This document shows positions 24,786 to 33,847 of a stretch of 64,000 nucleotides of DNA, piece after piece. Source of the stretch: Fibrobacter sp. (GTDB lineage Bacteria > Fibrobacterota > Fibrobacteria > Fibrobacterales > Fibrobacteraceae); assembly GCA_017615055.1 (NCBI GenBank), contig JAGAAW010000133.1, positions 2,463-66,462 of the forward strand, given 5' to 3'. The notes below the pieces were generated by a model. That model was not told the origin of the DNA and did no database searches. It saw only the letters and a program-made list of their open reading frames with translations. The first letter of the stretch is position 1, and each line of letters begins with the position of its first letter. The translations under genes and the position numbers were made by a program.

Positions 24786-27700
24786 GTGTGGTATAAGCTA
24801 ATCACTCGAGTTTTGTTGTTGACCCTAGTCGCGGCAATGTGCGCTATGTCACAGACCCGCCCTGGTCGTGGTGGCGATGAGCCTGCAGCCGACGAACCCG
24901 CCGGGTCAACAAAGATCATCCGGTTCATGCCGAGCTGGACGAACACCAATGCCGTGTTGATCAACAACGGCACGGAAACCATTATGACCGCAGTAAAGAA
25001 CTACTGCGGCTGGTTCGAGACGAAGGTCAAGAACGCACCCGCGGCAAACTTCGCCGTGACGTTCAAGCAGACCATCGGTAACACCTACGTGGGTGCCGAA
25101 GGCCCGGAAATCGTCCCCTCGGGTGCACTCCCCGTAGGCACGCCAATACTACTCGACAGCATCGCCGCCCTGAGCGATACCCTGTGGATTATCGCAAACC
25201 CCGTTGACGCACCCGAACTGCACGCAACCTACCCGAACCGCCTGGGCGAGTGCCCGGTAAGAATCCTCTCGGTGATGATGTTCGACTGGCTGCACGGTAC
25301 CTACGGCGACGTATCGAGGAGCGACACTATCAACTACCACAGCGGCAACGCCGCCAAGGATTCCATTCTCGACAACATCGTCTACCTCATCAGCAACGAC
25401 TTCGGTAGCGGCGGATGCCAGAGCACCGGCGGCAAGGCAATGACGGGCATGGTGGAACCGTTCCTAGGGTCTAACGGCGTTCCCGTACGCAAGCAAGCGG
25501 ACTTCCCCGCAGCCTGCCACGCAACAAACTACCTCGACTACTGGTTCCAGCCCCTTGATATTGGCAAGGACGCAGGCGGTAAGGTCTATACCAACGCCAC
25601 ATGCCGTGACGTGGAACTCAACTTGACAGACGACGGTTTCTGGCTGGGGCAAAAGGACAACAACAGCAAGGAAGGCGGATTCTTCTTGCTGGATGACTTC
25701 GAGTACCTTGATGACGCAAAGACCGTGAAGAACATCTTCTTCGACCAGCTGAATGACAAGAAAGGCAAGAAGCACAACTTCGGCTTCACCATGAAGGTGC
25801 AGGCAAAGTTCGAATACGTGAAGGGCCAGGAATTCGAGTTCTTCGGCGACGACGACGTGTGGGTGTACATCAACAACCGCCTGGTGGTCGATATCGGTGG
25901 ACAGCACGGCCAGGTCCGCGGTTCCGTGAACCTCGATACGCTCGGGCTTGTCGAAGGCCAAGAATACCCGTTCCATATCTTCTACGTGGAACGCCACACC
26001 AGTTCCTCCAACTTCATGATGCGCACGTCCATGGACCTGCACACCGACGCAAGCATATTCCTCACCGACGACCGCTCCACGGAACTCCTCAAGAACTACG
26101 ACGTGTGGCAGATCGTAAAGAAGGACGCCCTCAGCTGCAACTTTGACTTGAACGAGGGTGCACAGGTCGATACGGTGGAAGGGCCTTCCAACTACCGCCT
26201 TACCGGCGGCAACCTCGGCGAAGAGGGCGTGATGCTCGACAAGACGGGTGAATGGTGGTTCGAGGGCATCTACATCGAGGAGGGCTGGGACAAGTTCAGC
26301 ATTGACTCCGCACGCATCGTAGAGAACAACGCTCTCGCTCCGGGCCACTACTACCTCGAGATCTCGCTCAAGAACAATCCGTCGCAGACGACCGGCGTGT
26401 GGATTACCGTTCCGCCTTACAAGGTCCCGACCCTCGTTTATGCAACCGAAAAGTGGAACCCGATCGGTGCACAGGTCTCTGGCGACACGCTCCAGATTGG
26501 CGAATGGGCCTATGAGATGTACAAGGTGCAGGTGATGTTCCTCGAGGACTGGGCGACGGTAACCATCTACAACCAGAACGTCAACCTCAATTCATCGGAC
26601 GTGAACCTCAAGACGGTTGACTCGACCGGCAAGGCTATAAACAAGGTCGTTCTCGATTCCACAGGACGTGCAACGTTCTATGTTATCGCGAATGCGCCCG
26701 TAAAGGGAGCGACGCTGCAGGCAAAAGGTGCCGCATCATCCGCTGCGGTATGGACAAACCTCATTTTCAACGAACCGCCTATCCCGAGAATTTCCAGTGC
26801 GAAATTCTATGACCGTAACGGCGATGGACGTGGCGACAGTCTACTTATCTCGTTCAACAAGGAACTCGGCGGCAAGAACAAACTTGACTCCCTGAAGTTC
26901 GCATTCGGTGAAGGGTTCCCGACACAGACCGAGAAAAACTGGAAGGTCCACAGCGGCAATATGGACCTCACGATTGTCACGGAAGGTGCCTGCGAGCCCT
27001 ACAAGCCCTGTGGTTTCAGCTCGCTAATATTTACCGGCGGCAAGGAAGAGGAATACACGGGTAGTATCGATACCTGGTTTACCTATACCAACAACGGCAA
27101 GAGCTATCACTTCCACATTGCAGCCGACCCGCTTATCGACCGCGTGAACCCGATCGTGACGCAGGCGATAAAGAGCATTACCAAGAGCGGCCACGAACTG
27201 GAGCTCACCTTCAGCGAAGCTATTTCTGCAGAATCCATGACTCACTTCAAGGATATGTTCCGCTACCACTGCGTACGTGCAGGCGAAGTCGTGGAACCCG
27301 AAAAGCCCGTTGGCGCAAGCAATTCTTCAAATAGCAAGATGACCCTGCTGTTCAGCATGAGCACCTACGATGCGGTAATCCCCTCCGTGGGCGACTCCAT
27401 AGGCTTTGTGCCACAGGGTGGCTCTAGCGTGAACCTAGCCGAAGACCTGGGCGGAGTCAAGCCGCATAAGTACTCGCCGATGGTGAGAATCTCGGGCCAG
27501 CAGGACATGCAGATTACCGGCGCCGACGTGTTGCCGCTTACACCGGACAACCCGATCGTGCAGAACCCGACTACCACGCAGCCGATCCTCGTGACCAACA
27601 AGGATGCCGACGCAAAGCAGGTATCCGACGAGAAGGGCGTACAGGGCCACCTGATCGGTTTCGACGTAGCTGAGCTCATCCAGACACAGACCGCCGAAGA

Positions 27701-28514
27701 AATCGCGAGCCTCGACGCACTTATCTCCACGCTCCTGAACGGTGGCGAAGACGACACCACGTACACCGTGCTCGAGATTACCGAAGAGGAATCCGTAGCC
27801 CAGCTGATTGCGGGCATCACCGCAAGTGCAGTAGGCGGCTTTAGCGAAGAGACCATCAACGGCTTTACCGACGGCACCATCACCGCGGACAACTACAAGA
27901 AGAAACTCAGCGACGAGGATCTCGCACTGTTCGAGGAATACGTACAGCGCGGTATCGAGGCGAGCAGGGATTCCGTCATGAACATCACGACGGCAGCCGA
28001 CAAGGATGTCGCATCGCTGTTCCAGGATATCATCGACGGGACCATCTCCGAAAAGGAACTCAAGAAGGCCGGCGTAAGCGAAGAAGTGATCGAGGCCATC
28101 AAGAACGGCACGATTACCGCAAGCAACATCGACCAGTTCCGCGACGGTACGCTCTCGCTCGCCAAGCCTGACGACGTGAAGCTCAAGTACGAAACATTCT
28201 ACTACACGCACCTCGGCAACTACGTGGGTGGAAGCTCTGGCACGATCCTCTGCTCCGACAAGGAAGTCTACGGCGACGCGGGCTGCCTTGCGAACCCGGG
28301 TAACCTGTTCCTTGCATGGAACATGCGTGCCGACGATGGCCGCCTCGTGGGTACGGGCGCCTACATCGCACGCCTGCACGTGAAGGTAGTAGTGGGCCGC
28401 AAGACGGTATCGAACCTCACGCGTGACCTCCTGTGGGGTGTGCGTCGCGGTGCCAACAACGGCATCAACCTCGGCGACATTCTAAGCGAAGACAAGAAGA
28501 AATCGAAAAAGTAA
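24786..28514 (+). CDS. Fibro-slime domain surface protein, paralogue 2
   Basis: Same architecture (HNFGFTM...GDDDVWVYINNRLVVDIGGQH...YVER); colinear with paralogue 1. Confidence 0.92.
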   Translation: MWYKLITRVLLLTLVAAMCAMSQTRPGRGGDEPAADEPAGSTKIIRFMPSWTNTNAVLINNGTETIMTAVKNYCGWFETKVKNAPAANFAVTFKQTIGNTYVGAEGPEIVPSGALPVGTPILLDSIAALSDTLWIIANPVDAPELHATYPNRLGECPVRILSVMMFDWLHGTYGDVSRSDTINYHSGNAAKDSILDNIVYLISNDFGSGGCQSTGGKAMTGMVEPFLGSNGVPVRKQADFPAACHATNYLDYWFQPLDIGKDAGGKVYTNATCRDVELNLTDDGFWLGQKDNNSKEGGFFLLDDFEYLDDAKTVKNIFFDQLNDKKGKKHNFGFTMKVQAKFEYVKGQEFEFFGDDDVWVYINNRLVVDIGGQHGQVRGSVNLDTLGLVEGQEYPFHIFYVERHTSSSNFMMRTSMDLHTDASIFLTDDRSTELLKNYDVWQIVKKDALSCNFDLNEGAQVDTVEGPSNYRLTGGNLGEEGVMLDKTGEWWFEGIYIEEGWDKFSIDSARIVENNALAPGHYYLEISLKNNPSQTTGVWITVPPYKVPTLVYATEKWNPIGAQVSGDTLQIGEWAYEMYKVQVMFLEDWATVTIYNQNVNLNSSDVNLKTVDSTGKAINKVVLDSTGRATFYVIANAPVKGATLQAKGAASSAAVWTNLIFNEPPIPRISSAKFYDRNGDGRGDSLLISFNKELGGKNKLDSLKFAFGEGFPTQTEKNWKVHSGNMDLTIVTEGACEPYKPCGFSSLIFTGGKEEEYTGSIDTWFTYTNNGKSYHFHIAADPLIDRVNPIVTQAIKSITKSGHELELTFSEAISAESMTHFKDMFRYHCVRAGEVVEPEKPVGASNSSNSKMTLLFSMSTYDAVIPSVGDSIGFVPQGGSSVNLAEDLGGVKPHKYSPMVRISGQQDMQITGADVLPLTPDNPIVQNPTTTQPILVTNKDADAKQVSDEKGVQGHLIGFDVAELIQTQTAEEIASLDALISTLLNGGEDDTTYTVLEITEEESVAQLIAGITASAVGGFSEETINGFTDGTITADNYKKKLSDEDLALFEEYVQRGIEASRDSVMNITTAADKDVASLFQDIIDGTISEKELKKAGVSEEVIEAIKNGTITASNIDQFRDGTLSLAKPDDVKLKYETFYYTHLGNYVGGSSGTILCSDKEVYGDAGCLANPGNLFLAWNMRADDGRLVGTGAYIARLHVKVVVGRKTVSNLTRDLLWGVRRGANNGINLGDILSEDKKKSKK

Positions 28515-28630: not shown

Positions 28631-31600
28631 TTACACCGTTCCGTAAAGTTCGGTGATGTCCTCGTTACTGCGGTCGAGCATCCAGAACTGGTTCACATGG
28701 GCGCAGGTATCCTCGACGAGGTTAATCTTGAGTCCATGCTTCGCTTCCAGGTAACGGTAGAGCCTGAGCGAGTCAGCGCACAGGGCATCGACCATCATGG
28801 TGCTTACCACCAGGTTGATCTCGCGGAGCTTGCCCTTGTTGCGGGCACGTGCCATCCAGCGGTCGATCTCGCCCATCGTAGATTCGAGGGTAGCGATACG
28901 GCCACCGCCACGGCACACCGGGCAGATTTCCGTCTTTTCGGTCATGAGGTTCACGCGCACACGCTTGCGGGTCACTTCCATGATGCCGAACTGGCTAATC
29001 TGTGCGGGGCTAATCGGCGCCTTGTCGCGGCGGATCGCCTTGCGGAATTCCTGGTACACGGCATCGCGGTCGGAATCCGCACCCATCTCGATGAACTTGA
29101 TGATGATGAGGCCGCCCACGTCGCGCATGCGCAACTGCTTCGCAATCTCGCGGCAAGCATCCAGGTTCGTCTCGAGGGCGAGCTTGTTCCTGTCCTTGCC
29201 GCGGGCACGCCCGAGGTTCACGTCGATGGAGACGAGCGCCTCGGTCTGCTCGATCACGAGGTTCGCGCCGTTGTAGAGCGGAATGCGGCGCTGCAGGGAG
29301 CGTGCATAGTCGTTCTCTATCTTGAAATGTTCAAACAGGCTCTCGTTCTTGTCCCAGAGCTTCACCTTGTCGAGCTTGTCCGGAGAAAGCACCTTGAGGT
29401 AGTCACGCAGCGCGAGGTATTCCTCGCGGTTGTCGATATACACGTAGTCGGTGTTCTCGCCAAAGTATTCACGCACGGTCTGCTCGATGGAATCGGATTC
29501 CTCGTAGATGCAGGTTTCGGCGGGCTGGTTCGCGAAGTTGAACTTGGTCTGTTCCCACTTGCTCTCGAGTTCGCGCATCTGCTTCTGGATTTCGAATTCG
29601 GATTCGTTGAGGCCGTTGGTACGCACGATGTAGCCCACGTCGCGGGCCTTGAGGCGGCGCACCACCTTCTTGAACTCGCGGCGCTTGGCCGGGTCGCGTT
29701 CGCGCTTGGAGACTCCGATGAAGTTGGTACCCGGCATGCACACGAGGAAACGCCCCGCAAAGCTCAGGTGCGTCGTCAAGCGCGCACCCTTGGTGCTGAT
29801 CGGTTCCTTCACCACCTGGACCATGATTTCCTGGCCTTCGCGCAGAATCTCGTCGATGGAGATTTCCTTGGATGGACCATCCTCGTCATCGTCGTCACCG
29901 TATTCGCGGCGCAGGAGTTCGCTACGGTCCATCGCATCGTCCTGATGCAGGAACCCGGCCTTCTCCATGCCGATATCGATAAACGCGGCCTTGAGTGCGG
30001 GGAGAACCTTCTGCACCACGCCCTTGTAGATATTCCCGAGCACGCGAGTCGAGGAGACGCTTTCCACCACGAGTTCGGCAAGTTCGCCGTCTTCCATGAT
30101 GGCGATACGCTTCTCGTAGGGCGTCTTGCTGATAAGGATTTCGCGCTTCACCTTGTTGCGGCCGCGCATGTTGCCACGCTTCGGGCGTGTCGGCTTTGCG
30201 GGCGCATCGGACTCCACGAAGTCGTAGAGTTCGGTAATGTCTTCCTTCTGGTCGTTGAACATCCAGAACTGGTTCACGTGGGCGCGGTCGTCCTCGACAA
30301 GCTCGACCTTCATGTCGTGCTTGTATTCCAGGTAGTGCAGCATGCGGGCACGGTCACGCACCAACACCTCCACCATCGGGGAGCTGAGCACGAGCGTCAC
30401 CTGCTTGAGGCCGCCCTTCGAGTGGGCGCGCGCCATCCAGCGGTCGATTGTCCCGAGAGCCGACTCGAGGGTGGCAATGCGGCCACCGCCACGGCACACC
30501 GGGCAGAACTTGCTCTTGAAGGAATCCTCACGCACGCGTTCGCGGCGGATTTCCATAAGCCCGAACTGGGTAATCGGGGACGGCTTCACGATCGCCTTGT
30601 CGCGGCGTGCAGCCTTCACGAATTCCTGATAGATAATCTCGCGGTCGTTGTCGGTCTCCATGTCGATGAAGTCCACAATGACAAAGCCGTCCACATCCCT
30701 GAGTCTAAGCTGCTTCGCGATTTCGCGGCAGGCATCGATGTTAGTCTCGAGGATAATCTTGCCCTGGTCCTTGCCGTGCACCTTGGGGCCCGTGTTCACG
30801 TCGATGGACATGAGGGCCTCGGTCTGCTCGATCACGAGATTTCCACCGCGCGGGAGCGGTACCTGGCGCTGCAGGGAGCGGGCGTAGTCGTTCTCTATCT
30901 TGAAGTACTCGAACAGGCTCTCGCTACTGCTCCAGAGCTTGACCTTGTCGAGCATCTCGGGGGCGGCGCTGCGCAGGTAGTCACGGAGCGAGAAATACTC
31001 GTCGCGGTTGTCCACGTACACGTAGTCGGTATTCTCGTTGAAGTATTCACCGATGGCGCGGCCCGCGGAATTGGACTGTTCGAACACGCAGGTACCGACA
31101 GCGGCACCCGCATAGTTTTCCTTGGTGCGGTTCCAGAGGGCCTCGAGTTCCTGCATCTGCTGCTGGAGGGCCTCCTCCGTCGCTTCCATGCCCGAGGTAC
31201 GCACGATATAACCCACGTCGCCGGCCTTGAGGCGGTTGATCATCCCCTTGACCTCGCGGCGGCGGGCAATGTCACGTTCACGCTTGGACACGCCGATGAA
31301 GTTCGTGCCCGGCATGCACACCAGCAGGCTACCCGCAAAGGTCACGCGCATGGTAAGCCCGGCACCCTTGCCGCCCGCAGGTTCCTTCGAGACCTGCACC
31401 ATAATCTCGTCGCCCTCGTGGAGCACGTCGGCTATGGCAGAATCACCGTAGGCATCCGTATCGTCATCATCGAACCTGCGTTCAAGCGCGGCCTTGGTAT
31501 CGACGATATCTTCTTGCCGCAAAACGCCGTCCTGGCCCAGCCCTATATCCACATAGGCTAGCGCTGCCGCCGGAACCACCTTTTGTACGACACCCTTATA

Positions 31601-31735
31601 AATATTACCCTGGACCTGACTCGAAGAGCTCCCCTCGACCACGAGTTCCGCCAATTCGCCATCTTCCATGATGGCATAGCGCGTTTCGTAGGGAGTCTTA
31701 CTAATCAAAATTCCACGTTTGCACTTATACGTCAT
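28631..31735 (-). CDS. Rne/Rng family ribonuclease made of two tandem full RNase G-like units
   Basis: Each ~500-aa half has GNIYKG S1, IVRT sensor, LVIEQTEAL-x-SIDVN, EIAKQLR-x-RD, CPVCRGGG Zn-link; basic linker near 30150-30220. Confidence 0.93.
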   Translation of the reverse strand: MTYKCKRGILISKTPYETRYAIMEDGELAELVVEGSSSSQVQGNIYKGVVQKVVPAAALAYVDIGLGQDGVLRQEDIVDTKAALERRFDDDDTDAYGDSAIADVLHEGDEIMVQVSKEPAGGKGAGLTMRVTFAGSLLVCMPGTNFIGVSKRERDIARRREVKGMINRLKAGDVGYIVRTSGMEATEEALQQQMQELEALWNRTKENYAGAAVGTCVFEQSNSAGRAIGEYFNENTDYVYVDNRDEYFSLRDYLRSAAPEMLDKVKLWSSSESLFEYFKIENDYARSLQRQVPLPRGGNLVIEQTEALMSIDVNTGPKVHGKDQGKIILETNIDACREIAKQLRLRDVDGFVIVDFIDMETDNDREIIYQEFVKAARRDKAIVKPSPITQFGLMEIRRERVREDSFKSKFCPVCRGGGRIATLESALGTIDRWMARAHSKGGLKQVTLVLSSPMVEVLVRDRARMLHYLEYKHDMKVELVEDDRAHVNQFWMFNDQKEDITELYDFVESDAPAKPTRPKRGNMRGRNKVKREILISKTPYEKRIAIMEDGELAELVVESVSSTRVLGNIYKGVVQKVLPALKAAFIDIGMEKAGFLHQDDAMDRSELLRREYGDDDDEDGPSKEISIDEILREGQEIMVQVVKEPISTKGARLTTHLSFAGRFLVCMPGTNFIGVSKRERDPAKRREFKKVVRRLKARDVGYIVRTNGLNESEFEIQKQMRELESKWEQTKFNFANQPAETCIYEESDSIEQTVREYFGENTDYVYIDNREEYLALRDYLKVLSPDKLDKVKLWDKNESLFEHFKIENDYARSLQRRIPLYNGANLVIEQTEALVSIDVNLGRARGKDRNKLALETNLDACREIAKQLRMRDVGGLIIIKFIEMGADSDRDAVYQEFRKAIRRDKAPISPAQISQFGIMEVTRKRVRVNLMTEKTEICPVCRGGGRIATLESTMGEIDRWMARARNKGKLREINLVVSTMMVDALCADSLRLYRYLEAKHGLKINLVEDTCAHVNQFWMLDRSNEDITELYGTV

Positions 31736-31859
31736 TAACAATCCTAAAGTATGTTAAAACTCGATAGAAATACACCCAAAACGGCAATCCTGGTCCGGAA
31801 AGCCGTCTAAGGTAGCATAAATATAATAAATGTCAAAAAAATGAATTAGGCGCGAACGG

Positions 31860-32861
31860 TCATGTAAGGTGAGACGGCGGGGTGCCAGCGCTGTTGCGGA
31901 TGGCGGCCTGCTTCCTTTCCACAATCTGGTCGGCGATAGCGCGGGCCTTCTCGGTCAGCCACAGCCAGGACTGACTCGCCGGCTCGTAATCCGCCTCGCC
32001 GAACATCTGCACGCGATGGGCATGCCGGAGCGCCTCCACCTGGCGGAAGGCCTTCACGTCACCCTTCGGGTACACCGCAAAGGTCGAGCCACCGTTGTAG
32101 TTCAAAATACTGAACGCGGGCACGTCACTCGGGCCGTCGGCAATGTAGACCATGTTCTCGAAGGGTACCCGGCGGCTCTCGCGCGCAATCGTGGAATTCA
32201 CGTCAATCGTATCGGGGTACTTGTTGCTCCCCTTGTTGATCTCGAAAAGGTAGCGGGTCTTGCTCGTGTTGTCGAGGGCACAGGCAACCTGGGAAATCTC
32301 GGGGCCCGTAGCAAGCCCGAGTTCCGCCTCCGCAGAAGAGGACTTCAGGCCGGTAGCACCATCGGGCATATCGAGGAATCCGGGCTGCAGTACATCCTCG
32401 ATAAACTCGCACCCGAAAATACCGTCCACGTAGGGCGCGATGGCGCTCCCGCGAATCGTCTCCGCAAACCCGGTACTGACAACGTAATGTTCCAGACGGA
32501 TATCGAATGCCTTGTACTTCGGGTTTTCATCGATAAGCTTCTTGATTTCACCAAAGAACTGCGGCAAGCCCGGATAGAACACGAGTTCCTTGCCGAACTC
32601 ACGTAATAGTTTGTTCGAAAGCCCCTTGAAGAGCCCCGCCTTCACGTAGGTCAGGATATGGTTCAGGTAGCTGGTATCGGAATTCACCGAGATGCCCTGT
32701 GCCGCATAGCGGGCCTTGAGCGCATTAACCTCGGCCCAGAAAGTACGGCCATCCACGCCAAAATGGCGGAAGAGTGGTTCCTGCATGTACGAACTGATGA
32801 GGGTCTTGTCGCAGTCCCACACCATCGCGATGATATTCTGTTCAAACGGCGCCTGTTTCAT
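31860..32861 (-). CDS. HAD-like hydrolase
   Basis: WDCDKTL (DxD), YVVSTG, MVYIADGPSDVP. Confidence 0.8.
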   Translation of the reverse strand: MKQAPFEQNIIAMVWDCDKTLISSYMQEPLFRHFGVDGRTFWAEVNALKARYAAQGISVNSDTSYLNHILTYVKAGLFKGLSNKLLREFGKELVFYPGLPQFFGEIKKLIDENPKYKAFDIRLEHYVVSTGFAETIRGSAIAPYVDGIFGCEFIEDVLQPGFLDMPDGATGLKSSSAEAELGLATGPEISQVACALDNTSKTRYLFEINKGSNKYPDTIDVNSTIARESRRVPFENMVYIADGPSDVPAFSILNYNGGSTFAVYPKGDVKAFRQVEALRHAHRVQMFGEADYEPASQSWLWLTEKARAIADQIVERKQAAIRNSAGTPPSHLT

Positions 32862-32869
32862 AATAAACC

Positions 32870-33020
32870 TCTCGTAACCCGCAATAAATTTCTCAATCCC
32901 GCAATAAACTTCTCGTAACCCGCAACCTAATCATCCATCATCAATCATCCATTATCCATCAACAAACTTCCCGCAACCCGAATCCTAATCATCCATCATC
33001 AATTATCAATCATCAATCAT
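32870..33020. repeat. Compound intergenic repeat: three ~20-nt units plus TCATC(C/A)A heptamer arrays in two related blocks
   Basis: tctcgtaacccgcaataaa-like units; cctaatcatccatcatcaat occurs twice. Confidence 0.75.
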
Positions 33021-33847
33021 TTCGTAATAAAGTAGTCCTCGGGATTCACGGGCACGCCGTCAACGCGGATCTCGTAATGCAGGCCCACGCCGGATTCTCG
33101 CCCGCTCTCGTTCACGGTCGCAATCGGGTCGCCGCGCCGTACCACGTCGCCCTCGTGCACCAGGGAATGCCCCAGGTGCGCGTAGAACGTGCGGATGCGC
33201 GGCAGGTGGCTAATCTTCACCGAAAGCCCGAAACCGCGGTGCGAACGCACCTCCATCACCACGCCCGCACCTGTCGCATAAACTGTGTCATCTACGTCGG
33301 CGACGTAATCAATGCCCCTGTGCGGCAGGTCAATCTCGGTAAACGGATCGCGGATCATCTCGAAACGGTTCCTGACCGCGTGCCCGTTCTTGAGCGGGTG
33401 AATCACGGGCAGCGACGCCGCAAGCGCCGAGTCACCCTCGATGCCCTTCAGGAGCCTCTTGAAACTACCCTCGATCTCGCGCAGGCTCTTGCGGGAAGAA
33501 AACGGCACCGATTCTTCGCCGAAGGCATCGTCCAGCGCAAACCCGAGCCCGCTCAGCTTCATGGTGCTGTCGCGCAGGAGCTTTGTCTCCTCTGCCTTGA
33601 GGATGGATTCGTCCACCGTCTCGCGGATACCCTTGATCTCTTCCTTGATGGCCTTGTTCTGCCGGTATACCGAAACGATGTCGTCTGTTGTTAAGTTGTC
33701 TATAATCTGCGTCGGGGAGAAAAGGATAAATCCGACTGCCGCGAGCAGTATGGCCACGGGCACCAGAAGTATGCGCCAGAAGGATAGCCGGAAGTTCTTG
33801 CTGCCGGACGTCCTTTCGGTAAAAACGTGTACTTCGAGCTTGCGCAC
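33017..33847 (-). CDS. M23 family metallopeptidase
   Basis: HRGIDY, TFYAHL, GLHYEIRVDGVPVNP; N-terminal TM. Confidence 0.9.
   Translation of the reverse strand: MRKLEVHVFTERTSGSKNFRLSFWRILLVPVAILLAAVGFILFSPTQIIDNLTTDDIVSVYRQNKAIKEEIKGIRETVDESILKAEETKLLRDSTMKLSGLGFALDDAFGEESVPFSSRKSLREIEGSFKRLLKGIEGDSALAASLPVIHPLKNGHAVRNRFEMIRDPFTEIDLPHRGIDYVADVDDTVYATGAGVVMEVRSHRGFGLSVKISHLPRIRTFYAHLGHSLVHEGDVVRRGDPIATVNESGRESGVGLHYEIRVDGVPVNPEDYFITK

Follow-up and report, generated by a model that had tools for sequence, protein, structure and literature searches.

In many bacteria, most mRNA decay and much RNA processing are initiated by RNase E/G enzymes. Whether the 5' end of an RNA is sensed and its scissile bond cut within one subunit or across the dimer is a question for which, to our knowledge, the evidence so far consists of one co-crystal and one genetic study, both from E. 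coli. In the co-crystal of E. coli RNase E, the 5' end is bound in the sensor of one subunit and the scissile bond lies in the other subunit's active site (PMC6954427). The lethal alleles R169Q and D346A/D303A complement each other in vivo and in vitro, and the same work notes that some recent models put sensing and cleavage within one subunit (PMC6954427). The S1 and 5'-sensor subdomains move as a single body (PMC2631609), and F67 and K112 sandwich the +2 base (PMC8522691). In the principal dimer of E. coli, the small domain of one protomer is found beside the N-terminal RNase H strand of its partner (PMC6202311), and higher oligomers of RNase E/G enzymes are formed via the small domains (PMC2631609). 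The premise of an earlier note on the DNA described here, that the S1/5'-sensor of one protomer serves the catalytic Asp pair of the other, is backed by two of these studies (PMC6954427, PMC6202311).

Two Rne/Rng units in one reading frame

The window is a stretch of 64,000 nucleotides from Fibrobacter sp. (contig JAGAAW010000133.1). On its minus strand, a single open reading frame encodes two complete Rne/Rng units, 61% identical in amino acids and 69% in nucleotides (~1500 nt), which are joined by a 22-aa basic linker. The features are listed below, with E. coli RNase E equivalents in brackets; residues were mapped by HMMER alignment to the PDB chains 2bx2/2vrt (E. coli RNase E).

28631..31735, minus strand: whole gene, a tandem Rne/Rng ribonuclease of 1034 aa, counted from the ATG at 31735
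30215..31720, minus strand: unit 1 (aa 8-509), a full Rne/Rng unit with intact catalytic residues and a degenerate RNA-binding head
31349..31618, minus strand: unit 1 S1 subdomain (aa 42-131), with Val as F67 equivalent (codon 31523-31525); dN/dS 0.15
31064..31348, minus strand: unit 1 5'-sensor subdomain (aa 132-226), as a whole relaxed; dN/dS 0.24
30512..30874, minus strand: unit 1 DNase-I-like subdomain (aa 290-410), metal ligands intact
30494..30505, minus strand: unit 1 Zn-link cysteines, CPVC, C413/C416
30149..30214, minus strand: linker (aa 510-531), rich in Lys, Arg and Pro, with low conservation; dN/dS 0.41
28634..30148, minus strand: unit 2 (aa 532-1036), a full Rne/Rng unit whose RNA-binding head is of ancestral type and whose catalytic centre is disabled
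29771..30046, minus strand: unit 2 S1 subdomain (aa 566-657); dN/dS 0.047
29486..29770, minus strand: unit 2 5'-sensor subdomain (aa 658-752), with R707/T708 (R169/T170); dN/dS 0.024
28934..29296, minus strand: unit 2 DNase-I-like subdomain (aa 816-936); dN/dS 0.19
28913..28924, minus strand: unit 2 Zn-link cysteines, CPVC, C940/C943

The frame given by the ORF finder, 28631..31741 (-), has 1036 aa counted from a TTG. The true start is likely the ATG at 31735 instead, since an AGGA Shine-Dalgarno sequence (31742-31745) lies 6 nt 5' of it and the orthologues, 1033-1041 aa long, begin at the equivalent Met. The stop codon occupies 28631-28633.

Each unit alone exceeds the TIGR00757 cut-off of 325.95 bits (371.7 for unit 1, 413.4 for unit 2), which bears out the reading of the earlier note that one frame holds two complete RNase E/G units; every motif quoted in that note was also found where it had been placed. 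PF10150 is likewise matched by each unit alone, with 264 bits for unit 1 and 273 for unit 2 (cut-off 25.5), and a profile search matched the S1, RNase_E_G and thioredoxin-like small domains in both. In both units the subdomains follow the family arrangement of RNase H / S1 / 5'-sensor / RNase H / DNase I / Zn link / small domain, and the units align with each other over 506 residues with 5 gapped positions. Their identity of 61% in amino acids and 69% in nucleotides means that the repeat is neither recent nor made by assembly. The linker is 20-34 aa long among orthologues, and its C-terminal end, RNK(V/C/A)KR, matches the ancestral N-terminus NKCKR.

With E. coli RNase E the protein shares, at an identity of ~36-39%, the order of subdomains, the pair of catalytic Asp residues, the S1 contact residues, the pocket for the 5'-phosphate and the CPxCxGxG zinc link. 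Unit 2 can be aligned over its whole length with E. coli residues 3-462 in the solved chains. Unlike E. coli RNase E, the protein has no C-terminal degradosome scaffold: a long non-catalytic region of the RNase E type is absent, the sole extra region being the 22-aa linker. The RNase E equivalogs NF008074, NF052588 and NF052586 score 187-268 bits per unit, below their cut-offs of 900-1400. The RNase G equivalog NF008689 (cut-off 594 bits) is missed by each unit, at 314.6 and 346.8 bits, and the 650 bits of the whole protein pass it solely as a two-unit sum; a single-unit relative, P0123, also falls below the cut-off at 367 bits. By its size and the absence of a scaffold tail the protein resembles RNase G, yet by these profile scores it is not an RNase G equivalog. 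It is a variant within the known Rne/Rng family.

Complementary relaxation of the two units

The metal ligands of unit 1 are all in place: D314 (D303; codon 30800-30802), N316 (N305) and D357 (D346; codon 30671-30673), within SIDVNTG and DFIDME motifs that are invariant in 23 genomes. The S1 subdomain of the same unit has Y63 at F57, V73 at F67 and K125 at K112. Among orthologues the F67 position is V, I, S, C or T, never Phe, and the K106/K112 region is variable. Its 5'-sensor has R181/T182 (R169/T170), and the 5'-monophosphate pocket (equivalents of G124, V128, R169 and T170) is invariant, comprising G137/V141 and YIVRT.

Unit 2 has the opposite pattern. Its S1 residues F587 (F57), F597 (F67; 29951-29953), K645 (K106) and K651 (K112; 29789-29791) are invariant, and the motifs KAAFIDIG, KAGFLH and STKGARLT occur in 20/20 orthologous proteins and 23/23 species genomes. 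The 5'-monophosphate pocket is also invariant (G663/V667 for G124/V128, and YIVRT). At the catalytic centre, D840/N842 are the D303/N305 equivalents in the window protein, and in 11/23 genomes the D303 equivalent has given way to N or K. The D346 equivalent is Lys882 (codon 29096-29098), and it is Lys in all orthologues. The whole protein thus has one set of metal ligands, that of unit 1. These residues agree with the earlier note, in which unit 1 had kept its metal ligands with a diverged S1 and unit 2 had a canonical S1 with Lys for the second catalytic Asp. The IVRT 5' sensor and CPVC that it reported in both units are likewise present and kept across orthologues, and the CPxCxGxG Cys pairs of both units are retained in all of them.

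The two substitutions extend well beyond the window: unit 2 has Lys at D346 and unit 1 lacks Phe at F67 in 20/20 database orthologues and 23/23 species genomes, as the earlier note's hypothesis had anticipated. Every one of the 23 species-level Fibrobacter genomes that carry the fusion combines the complementary residue pattern with a single open frame. Both residue sets are retained by more than 100 single-unit Fibrobacterota relatives. A tally across the phylum took in one unpublished genome of another family (G253), on which no claim rests.

Selection follows the same division. Mean identity among orthologues is 0.61 in unit 1 vs 0.94 in unit 2 for S1, and 0.67 vs 0.96 for the 5'-sensor, whereas for the DNase I subdomain it is 0.86 vs 0.76. 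The dN/dS values are 0.15 vs 0.047 (S1), 0.24 vs 0.024 (5'-sensor) and 0.10 vs 0.19 (DNase I). The maximum likelihood distance to the closest single-unit proteins is 1.72 for unit 1 vs 0.115 for unit 2 in the N part, and 0.38 vs 0.61 in the DNase I part. The likeness of these single-unit proteins is mosaic: their N part resembles that of unit 2, their DNase I part that of unit 1. The dN/dS values and branch lengths show complementary relaxation of the two units.

These data bear on a reading in which unit 1 would be a self-sufficient nuclease with a re-specialised S1/5'-sensor of its own, and unit 2 a dead module for RNA binding or substrate recruitment. Unit 1 does retain the catalytic and 5'-phosphate pocket residues, and sensing and cleavage are drawn in one subunit by some published models (PMC6954427). 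However, of all folded parts of the protein the S1/5'-sensor of unit 1 shows the lowest conservation (identity 0.61-0.67), its dN/dS being 3 to 10 times that of unit 2, and its K106/K112 region has been replaced in several orthologues, which indicates relaxation and not a new fixed specificity. The S1/5'-sensor of unit 2 is almost frozen (dN/dS 0.02-0.05) despite the dead centre of its own unit. In E. coli, moreover, mutants of the 5'-sensor and of the active site complement each other when in trans, but fail to do so in cis. We regard a self-sufficient unit 1 as quite unlikely.

It is extremely improbable that the locus is an assembly artefact or a decaying gene. Metagenome proteins of ~510 aa (P0122, P0146, P0161) do mix unit 1, unit 2 and single-unit sequence, and assemblies of the locus can be chimeric. 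Against this, 31% of nucleotides differ between the halves, the reading frame is unbroken in 23 species genomes, of which several are 99-100% complete, and dN/dS is below 0.25 in each folded subdomain. The unit 1 and unit 2 trees are parallel in topology, and the junction is bridged in an independent sample, a sheep gut metatranscriptome, where an RNA-library contig covers 30051-30679, comprising the end of unit 1, the linker and the start of unit 2; depth along the gene in these contig-based runs is no measure of expression level. On the comparative data, both an assembly-fused duplication and a pseudogene were rejected.

A proposed composite-site model

The head of unit 2 is near-frozen though its own catalytic centre is dead, which would be hard to explain unless it served another centre. 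We propose that the protein is probably a single-chain pseudo-dimer, an RNase G-like endoribonuclease with one composite active site made of the unit 2 S1/5'-sensor and the unit 1 DNase-I centre. The earlier note had suggested this composite site, and at the level of sequence the residue survey and complementary selection speak for it. In enzymes of this family, the S1 and 5'-sensor body of one protomer would clamp RNA onto the DNase-I-like Mg2+ site of the partner (D303/D346). An RNase E/G homodimer would then contain two cross-built sites, and after fusion one of the two would be free to decay. Site A, formed by the unit 2 S1/5'-sensor and the unit 1 catalytic centre, would be the single working site, with all canonical residues under very strong purifying selection. 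Site B, formed by the unit 1 S1/5'-sensor and the unit 2 catalytic centre, would not cleave, having lost the base-stacking Phe and the metal ligand D346, which became Lys everywhere, with D303 lost later. Between them the two CPxC pairs, both kept, would bind a single zinc, in the manner of the principal dimer of E. coli. We infer the cross-subunit geometry (from the E. coli literature), the intramolecular pairing, the zinc binding and the activity; which S1 would face which catalytic centre is assigned here by homology to E. coli.

The same logic is found in the engineered E. coli RNase E pair, in which a sensor-defective and an active-site-defective form are active only when combined. In contrast to that pair, the Fibrobacter "alleles" occur in nature, are covalently linked within a single chain and have become fixed clade-wide, and the degenerate head has lost the S1 base-stacking Phe where the engineered E. 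coli allele lost R169. With the subunits tied together, selection would have kept exactly one cross-built site while the other decayed, and the tandem fusion may be taken as natural evolutionary evidence for RNA cutting across the RNase E/G dimer interface.

The same composite site could also be built between chains, with unit 2 of one polypeptide pairing with unit 1 of another in domain-swapped dimers or chains. The results obtained here are compatible with intra-chain and inter-chain pairing alike, and higher oligomers via small domains are natural to RNase E/G (PMC2631609). Pairing between chains is nevertheless rather unlikely in our view. The fusion is in one frame in 23/23 genomes, and no split form was seen. 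Through the flexible linker of 20-34 aa, unit 1's small domain is connected with the N-terminal RNase H strand of unit 2, elements which are adjacent across the E. coli principal dimer (PMC6202311), and an intramolecular partner would be favoured by its large effective concentration.

Structure prediction may lend weak support to the pairing of unit 1 with unit 2. A complex prediction with unit 1, unit 2 and Zn scored 0.54, against 0.01 for the best of 3 controls, at least 69% of contacts agreeing between runs and partner pLDDT being at least 75; the E. coli RNase E dimer has been solved, and this pass is possibly memory. The mark applied is reached by 58/80 solved complexes and 2/110 mismatched pairs, and passes at 0.60 or below comprise just 7 of the 80 solved complexes and both passing mismatches. 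A full-chain AlphaFold2 model based on 20 aligned tandem orthologues was of too low quality to be used (mean pLDDT 54, pTM 0.26).

The earlier note had taken the second site to be dead or regulatory. The loss of D346 and Phe fits a dead site, but the 5'-phosphate pocket of unit 1 is kept, and site B is perhaps not simply dead. The S1/5'-sensor of unit 1 is still under purifying selection (dN/dS 0.15-0.24), and the Lys at D346 in unit 2 is fixed, not random. Together with the invariant pocket, these observations suggest that site B may retain a non-catalytic role. It is conceivable, though doubtful, that site B has been remade as a non-cleaving RNA-holding site, anchoring the 5' end or the product while site A cuts ("hold-and-cut"); this idea draws on the intact 5'-phosphate pocket of unit 1 and the replacement of metal ligands in unit 2 by Lys, with Lys/Arg later at D303 too. 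If true, the protein would be a built-in asymmetric RNase E/G, a symmetry-free natural model that could settle the question of cis vs trans family-wide. A single-active-site RNase E/G with two distinguishable halves is a potential reagent for kinetics and for cryo-EM without symmetry averaging, and would help to ask what the second site of a dimer is for.

Origin, distribution and relatives

The single-unit Rne/Rng proteins of Fibrobacter and Fibrobacterota, as well as E. coli RNase G, belong to the same family and have the same length per unit. Single-unit Fibrobacterota proteins such as P0123 (511 aa, annotated "Rne/Rng family ribonuclease") reach up to 85% identity with unit 2, and synteny with the single-unit genes is partly common, a PA14 gene lying downstream there too. 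The single-unit proteins have a canonical S1 and canonical catalytic residues in one unit and must homodimerise, whereas the tandem protein has two specialised units. The data fit an origin by a single in-situ duplication and in-frame fusion of the resident single-unit gene, which would have taken place in one lineage within the genus Fibrobacter. No other tandem forms appeared near the top of the ranking among 1.84 billion representative proteins.

The gene is the sole PF10150 gene of its genome, and no RNase Y or RNase J passed the cut-off, whether in this genome or in five genomes with the tandem gene that are at least 99% complete. Since complete genomes contain no other homologue of RNase E/G, Y or J, the tandem enzyme must be functional, and it is the only endonuclease of these types in these rumen cellulose degraders.

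Heterodimeric ABC transporters in which one ATP site is degenerate, archaeal tRNA-splicing endonucleases that combine catalytic with structural repeats, and the intramolecular RNase III pseudo-dimer of Dicer/Drosha follow a similar logic, in which a homodimer subunit is duplicated and complementary loss then maps onto one cross-built site. Their folds and chemistry are unrelated to those of the tandem enzyme. A literature search for tandem, duplicated or pseudo-dimeric RNase E/G, or for Fibrobacter RNase G, found nothing relevant, and no case of such a degenerate or fused dimer in the RNase E/G family. The tandem enzyme would be a clean example of subfunctionalisation inside one polypeptide.

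Two minor observations concern the assemblies. A rearrangement suggested by a contig joint from 30923 to 29354 (run X1) was rejected: the N part of unit 2 is followed by the C part of unit 1 at homologous positions, which is the appearance that a single-unit relative, if it co-occurs, takes on with a likeness threshold of 90%, and the joint is no evidence of rearrangement. In a window-wise comparison, the metagenome forms of 508-510 aa fit chimeric assemblies or recombinants, and none of these forms is present among the genus's 98 species genomes that gave a match. P0146 and P0161 have the N part of unit 1 with a single-unit or unit 2 C part, and P0122 is unit 2-like throughout, with Lys at D346 and a start of its own.

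Architecture and conservation of the tandem Rne/Rng gene

A single open frame of 1036 codons (window 28631-31741, minus strand) encodes the tandem ribonuclease. The ATG at 31735 is the most probable start, with an AGGA upstream at the usual distance and the same Met opening orthologues of 1033-1041 aa. The protein from this ATG has 1034 aa, in exact agreement with the gene coordinates of the earlier note. It is arranged as follows.

aa 8-509: unit 1, a complete Rne/Rng unit
aa 510-531 (window 30149-30214, minus strand): linker of 22 residues, rich in Lys, Arg and Pro
aa 532-1036: unit 2, a complete Rne/Rng unit

Scored separately against the curated Rne/Rng model TIGR00757, unit 1 (371.7 bits) and unit 2 (413.4 bits) both exceed the cut-off of 325.95 bits, and each unit has S1, RNase_E_G and thioredoxin-like small-domain matches. 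By profile, architecture and residues, the protein is placed in the Rne/Rng family. It resembles RNase G in its size and in having no scaffold tail; each unit, like the single-unit relatives, scores below the NCBI RNase G and RNase E equivalog cut-offs, and the database name of the tandem proteins is only 'Rne/Rng family ribonuclease'.

Between the halves, identity is 61% at the protein level and 69% at the DNA level, which indicates an old duplication and rules out an assembly product as the source of the double unit. The assembly-fused duplication that the earlier note had considered is not borne out either by the genomes: among 101 species-level Fibrobacter genomes scanned, 98 had matches, of which 23 carry the fusion, always as one intact open frame (1033-1078 codons), and the rest are single-unit. 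A search of 5.8 billion proteins gave 19 more full-length tandem proteins (69-98% identical), and all those with a name are from Fibrobacter. Ruminant gut samples from several studies also yield contigs with the gene. A sheep gut RNA-library contig bridges unit 1, the linker and unit 2 at 30051-30679; considering that RNA libraries can hold DNA, it attests the junction, not transcription.

Complementary losses in the two units

Residues were mapped by alignment to solved E. coli RNase E chains and the motifs then located. All statements of the earlier note on the motifs and residue states of both units proved correct.

Key residues (E. coli RNase E; unit 1; unit 2)
F57; Y63; F587
F67; V73; F597
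K112; K125; K651
R169/T170; R181/T182; R707/T708
D303/N305; D314/N316; D840/N842
D346; D357; K882
Zn-link Cys; C413/C416; C940/C943

The key columns were read in all 23 fusion-bearing species genomes. Unit 1 keeps SIDVNTG and DFIDME in every tandem sequence, and its 5'-phosphate pocket residues are invariant. Its F67 position is V, I, S, C or T and never Phe, and its K106/K112 region is variable, being replaced by an insertion in some orthologues. Unit 2 has KAAFIDIG, KAGFLH and STKGARLT in every tandem sequence, together with Lys at the D346 position; in 11 of the 23 genomes N or K also replaces D303, and the loop after this position has deletions in the more divergent orthologues. The Asp-to-Lys change in unit 2 and the Phe loss in unit 1, for which the earlier note had proposed a survey of orthologues, are thus both conserved. 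In contrast, more than 100 single-unit relatives across Fibrobacterota keep both a canonical S1 and canonical catalytic residues. Read from these columns, what one unit has lost the other has retained.

The same division is seen in the rates of change.

Conservation and selection (unit 1; unit 2). dN/dS values (Nei-Gojobori, 86 pairs of 14 loci) are descriptive only, as the pairs are not independent; ML distances are to the five closest single-unit proteins
Mean identity among orthologues, S1: 0.61; 0.94
Mean identity, 5'-sensor: 0.67; 0.96
Mean identity, DNase I: 0.86; 0.76
dN/dS, S1: 0.15; 0.047
dN/dS, 5'-sensor: 0.24; 0.024
dN/dS, DNase I: 0.10; 0.19
dN/dS, linker: 0.41
ML distance, S1 + 5'-sensor: 1.72; 0.115
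ML distance, DNase I: 0.38; 0.61

To judge from sequence evolution, no folded subdomain is neutral, and both units are still required as folded bodies. The linker is poorly conserved and is between about 20 and 34 residues long (loci L003-L016, L033-L041). Set against unit 2, the closest single-unit proteins show 92-100% identity in the N-terminal part; over DNase I, they are nearer unit 1 (80-94%) than unit 2. Such mosaic likeness is what complementary decay from a single-unit-like ancestor would predict.

Proposed composite active sites

In E. coli RNase E, the S1 domain and 5'-sensor are displaced together, as a single rigid body (PMC2631609), and the +2 base is sandwiched by F67 and K112, with K106 also touching the RNA (PMC8522691, PMC4306137). 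In the co-crystal, the sensor of one subunit holds the RNA 5' end, and the scissile bond lies in the active site of its partner. Complementation between the lethal R169Q and D303A/D346A alleles was seen in vivo and in vitro, and it was lost when one polypeptide carried both kinds of mutation (PMC6954427). On this geometry, the degenerate elements (the unit 1 head, that is its S1 and 5'-sensor, and the unit 2 catalytic centre) would fall in one composite site, and the frozen ones (unit 2 head and unit 1 catalytic centre) in the other. If the sites were instead built in cis, within each unit, both would be crippled, and nothing would explain the near-absolute conservation of the unit 2 head beside a dead centre. 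Hence the comparative data not only rely on cross-subunit catalysis but also support it independently. The composite site of unit 2 S1 and unit 1 catalytic centre, put forward in the earlier note, gains support from the complementary residue losses and from selection across orthologues; the two-unit observation itself is confirmed, and the complementary-loss interpretation is supported by comparative evidence. Pairing is presumably intramolecular rather than inter-chain, and zinc binding and catalytic activity are predicted. Considering the invariant 5'-phosphate pocket of unit 1 and the fixed Lys at D346, the second site, of unit 1 head and unit 2 centre, may have a non-catalytic role.

From the shallow alignment of tandem proteins, AlphaFold2 built a model of poor quality (pLDDT 54). 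Prediction of a unit 1, unit 2 and Zn complex with deep alignments per chain scored 0.54 in three runs (best control 0.01), with at least 69% contact agreement and partner pLDDT of at least 75. Among solved complexes, 58 of 80 attained the mark for the complex score, as did 2 of 110 mismatched pairs; those reaching it with scores of 0.60 or less were only 7 of the 80 solved complexes, plus both passing mismatches. The model possibly remembered the solved E. coli dimer, and the prediction lends the complex weak support.

What is new is the joining of two units in one chain and their specialisation in complementary ways; a literature search on the RNase E/G family found no paper describing either. 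The logic resembles that of heterodimeric ABC transporters, with their degenerate composite sites, and of archaeal tRNA-splicing endonucleases, with their catalytic and structural repeats.

Origin, neighbourhood and probable requirement for the enzyme

In the ML tree, the unit 1 clade (support 100) and unit 2 clade (support 96) are nested among Fibrobacter single-unit proteins and have parallel internal topologies; a tree joining both units in one clade is not rejected (p-AU 0.45). Unit 2 starts with the ancestral N-terminal motif NK(C/V/A)KR-ILISK. The last linker residues, RNK(V/C/A)KR, copy the ancestral N-terminus (MxNKCKR), and the edge of the duplicated stretch thus lies near codon 3 of the original gene. 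The flanking genes are partly common to tandem and single-unit loci.

31860-32861, minus strand: HAD-like hydrolase (weak Pfam match), upstream of the RNase gene
33017-33847, minus strand: M23 peptidase, upstream of the RNase gene
24786-28514, plus strand: 1242-aa PA14-domain protein, downstream of the RNase gene and convergent with it

Most tandem-bearing genomes keep the HAD-like/M23 pair in synteny; in three loci (L012-L014) the HAD-like gene is missing and the M23 gene is the immediate upstream neighbour. A PA14 homologue (40-60% identity) adjoins the single-unit RNase gene in loci L031 and L029, linking tandem and single-unit loci. Trees, shared neighbours and the ancestral motif at the unit 2 start fit a single in-situ duplication with in-frame fusion within the genus Fibrobacter. 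Among 1.84 billion representative proteins searched with HMMER, only the Fibrobacter tandem cluster matched at full length (2018 bits), followed by a single unit at 688 bits. No other listed protein came up to the roughly 600 bits expected for two units with the usual 35-40% identity, and no independent tandem form was seen.

The tandem gene is the sole PF10150 match in the window's genome (77% complete). Neither TIGR03319 (RNase Y) nor TIGR00649 (RNase J) had a match above cut-off in that genome or in five tandem-bearing genomes at least 99% complete (scanned as G000, G109, G164, G152, G136 and G141). Of the three main families of decay-initiating endonucleases, these genomes seem to have only the RNase E/G homologue, and so the enzyme has to work.

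It should be mentioned that an antisense open frame of 954 codons (28697-31561, plus strand) lies opposite the RNase gene; in L035, L037 and L040, three orthologous loci, the same frame is the longest ORF. It has the look of a shadow frame, not of a real gene, opposite a gene that is G+C-rich and has strong codon bias. In the same phylum, several genomes of another genus (g25, family f7) have 2-4 separate RNase E/G domain matches and may hold paralogues. Five metagenome-derived proteins of single length (P0122, P0135, P0146, P0161, P0178; about 485-519 aa) are mosaics, which arose either by chimeric assembly or by real recombination. In P0122 the whole sequence is like unit 2, Lys stands at D346 and the protein has an N-terminus of its own, and P0146 and P0161 join a unit 1 head to a single-unit or unit 2 tail.
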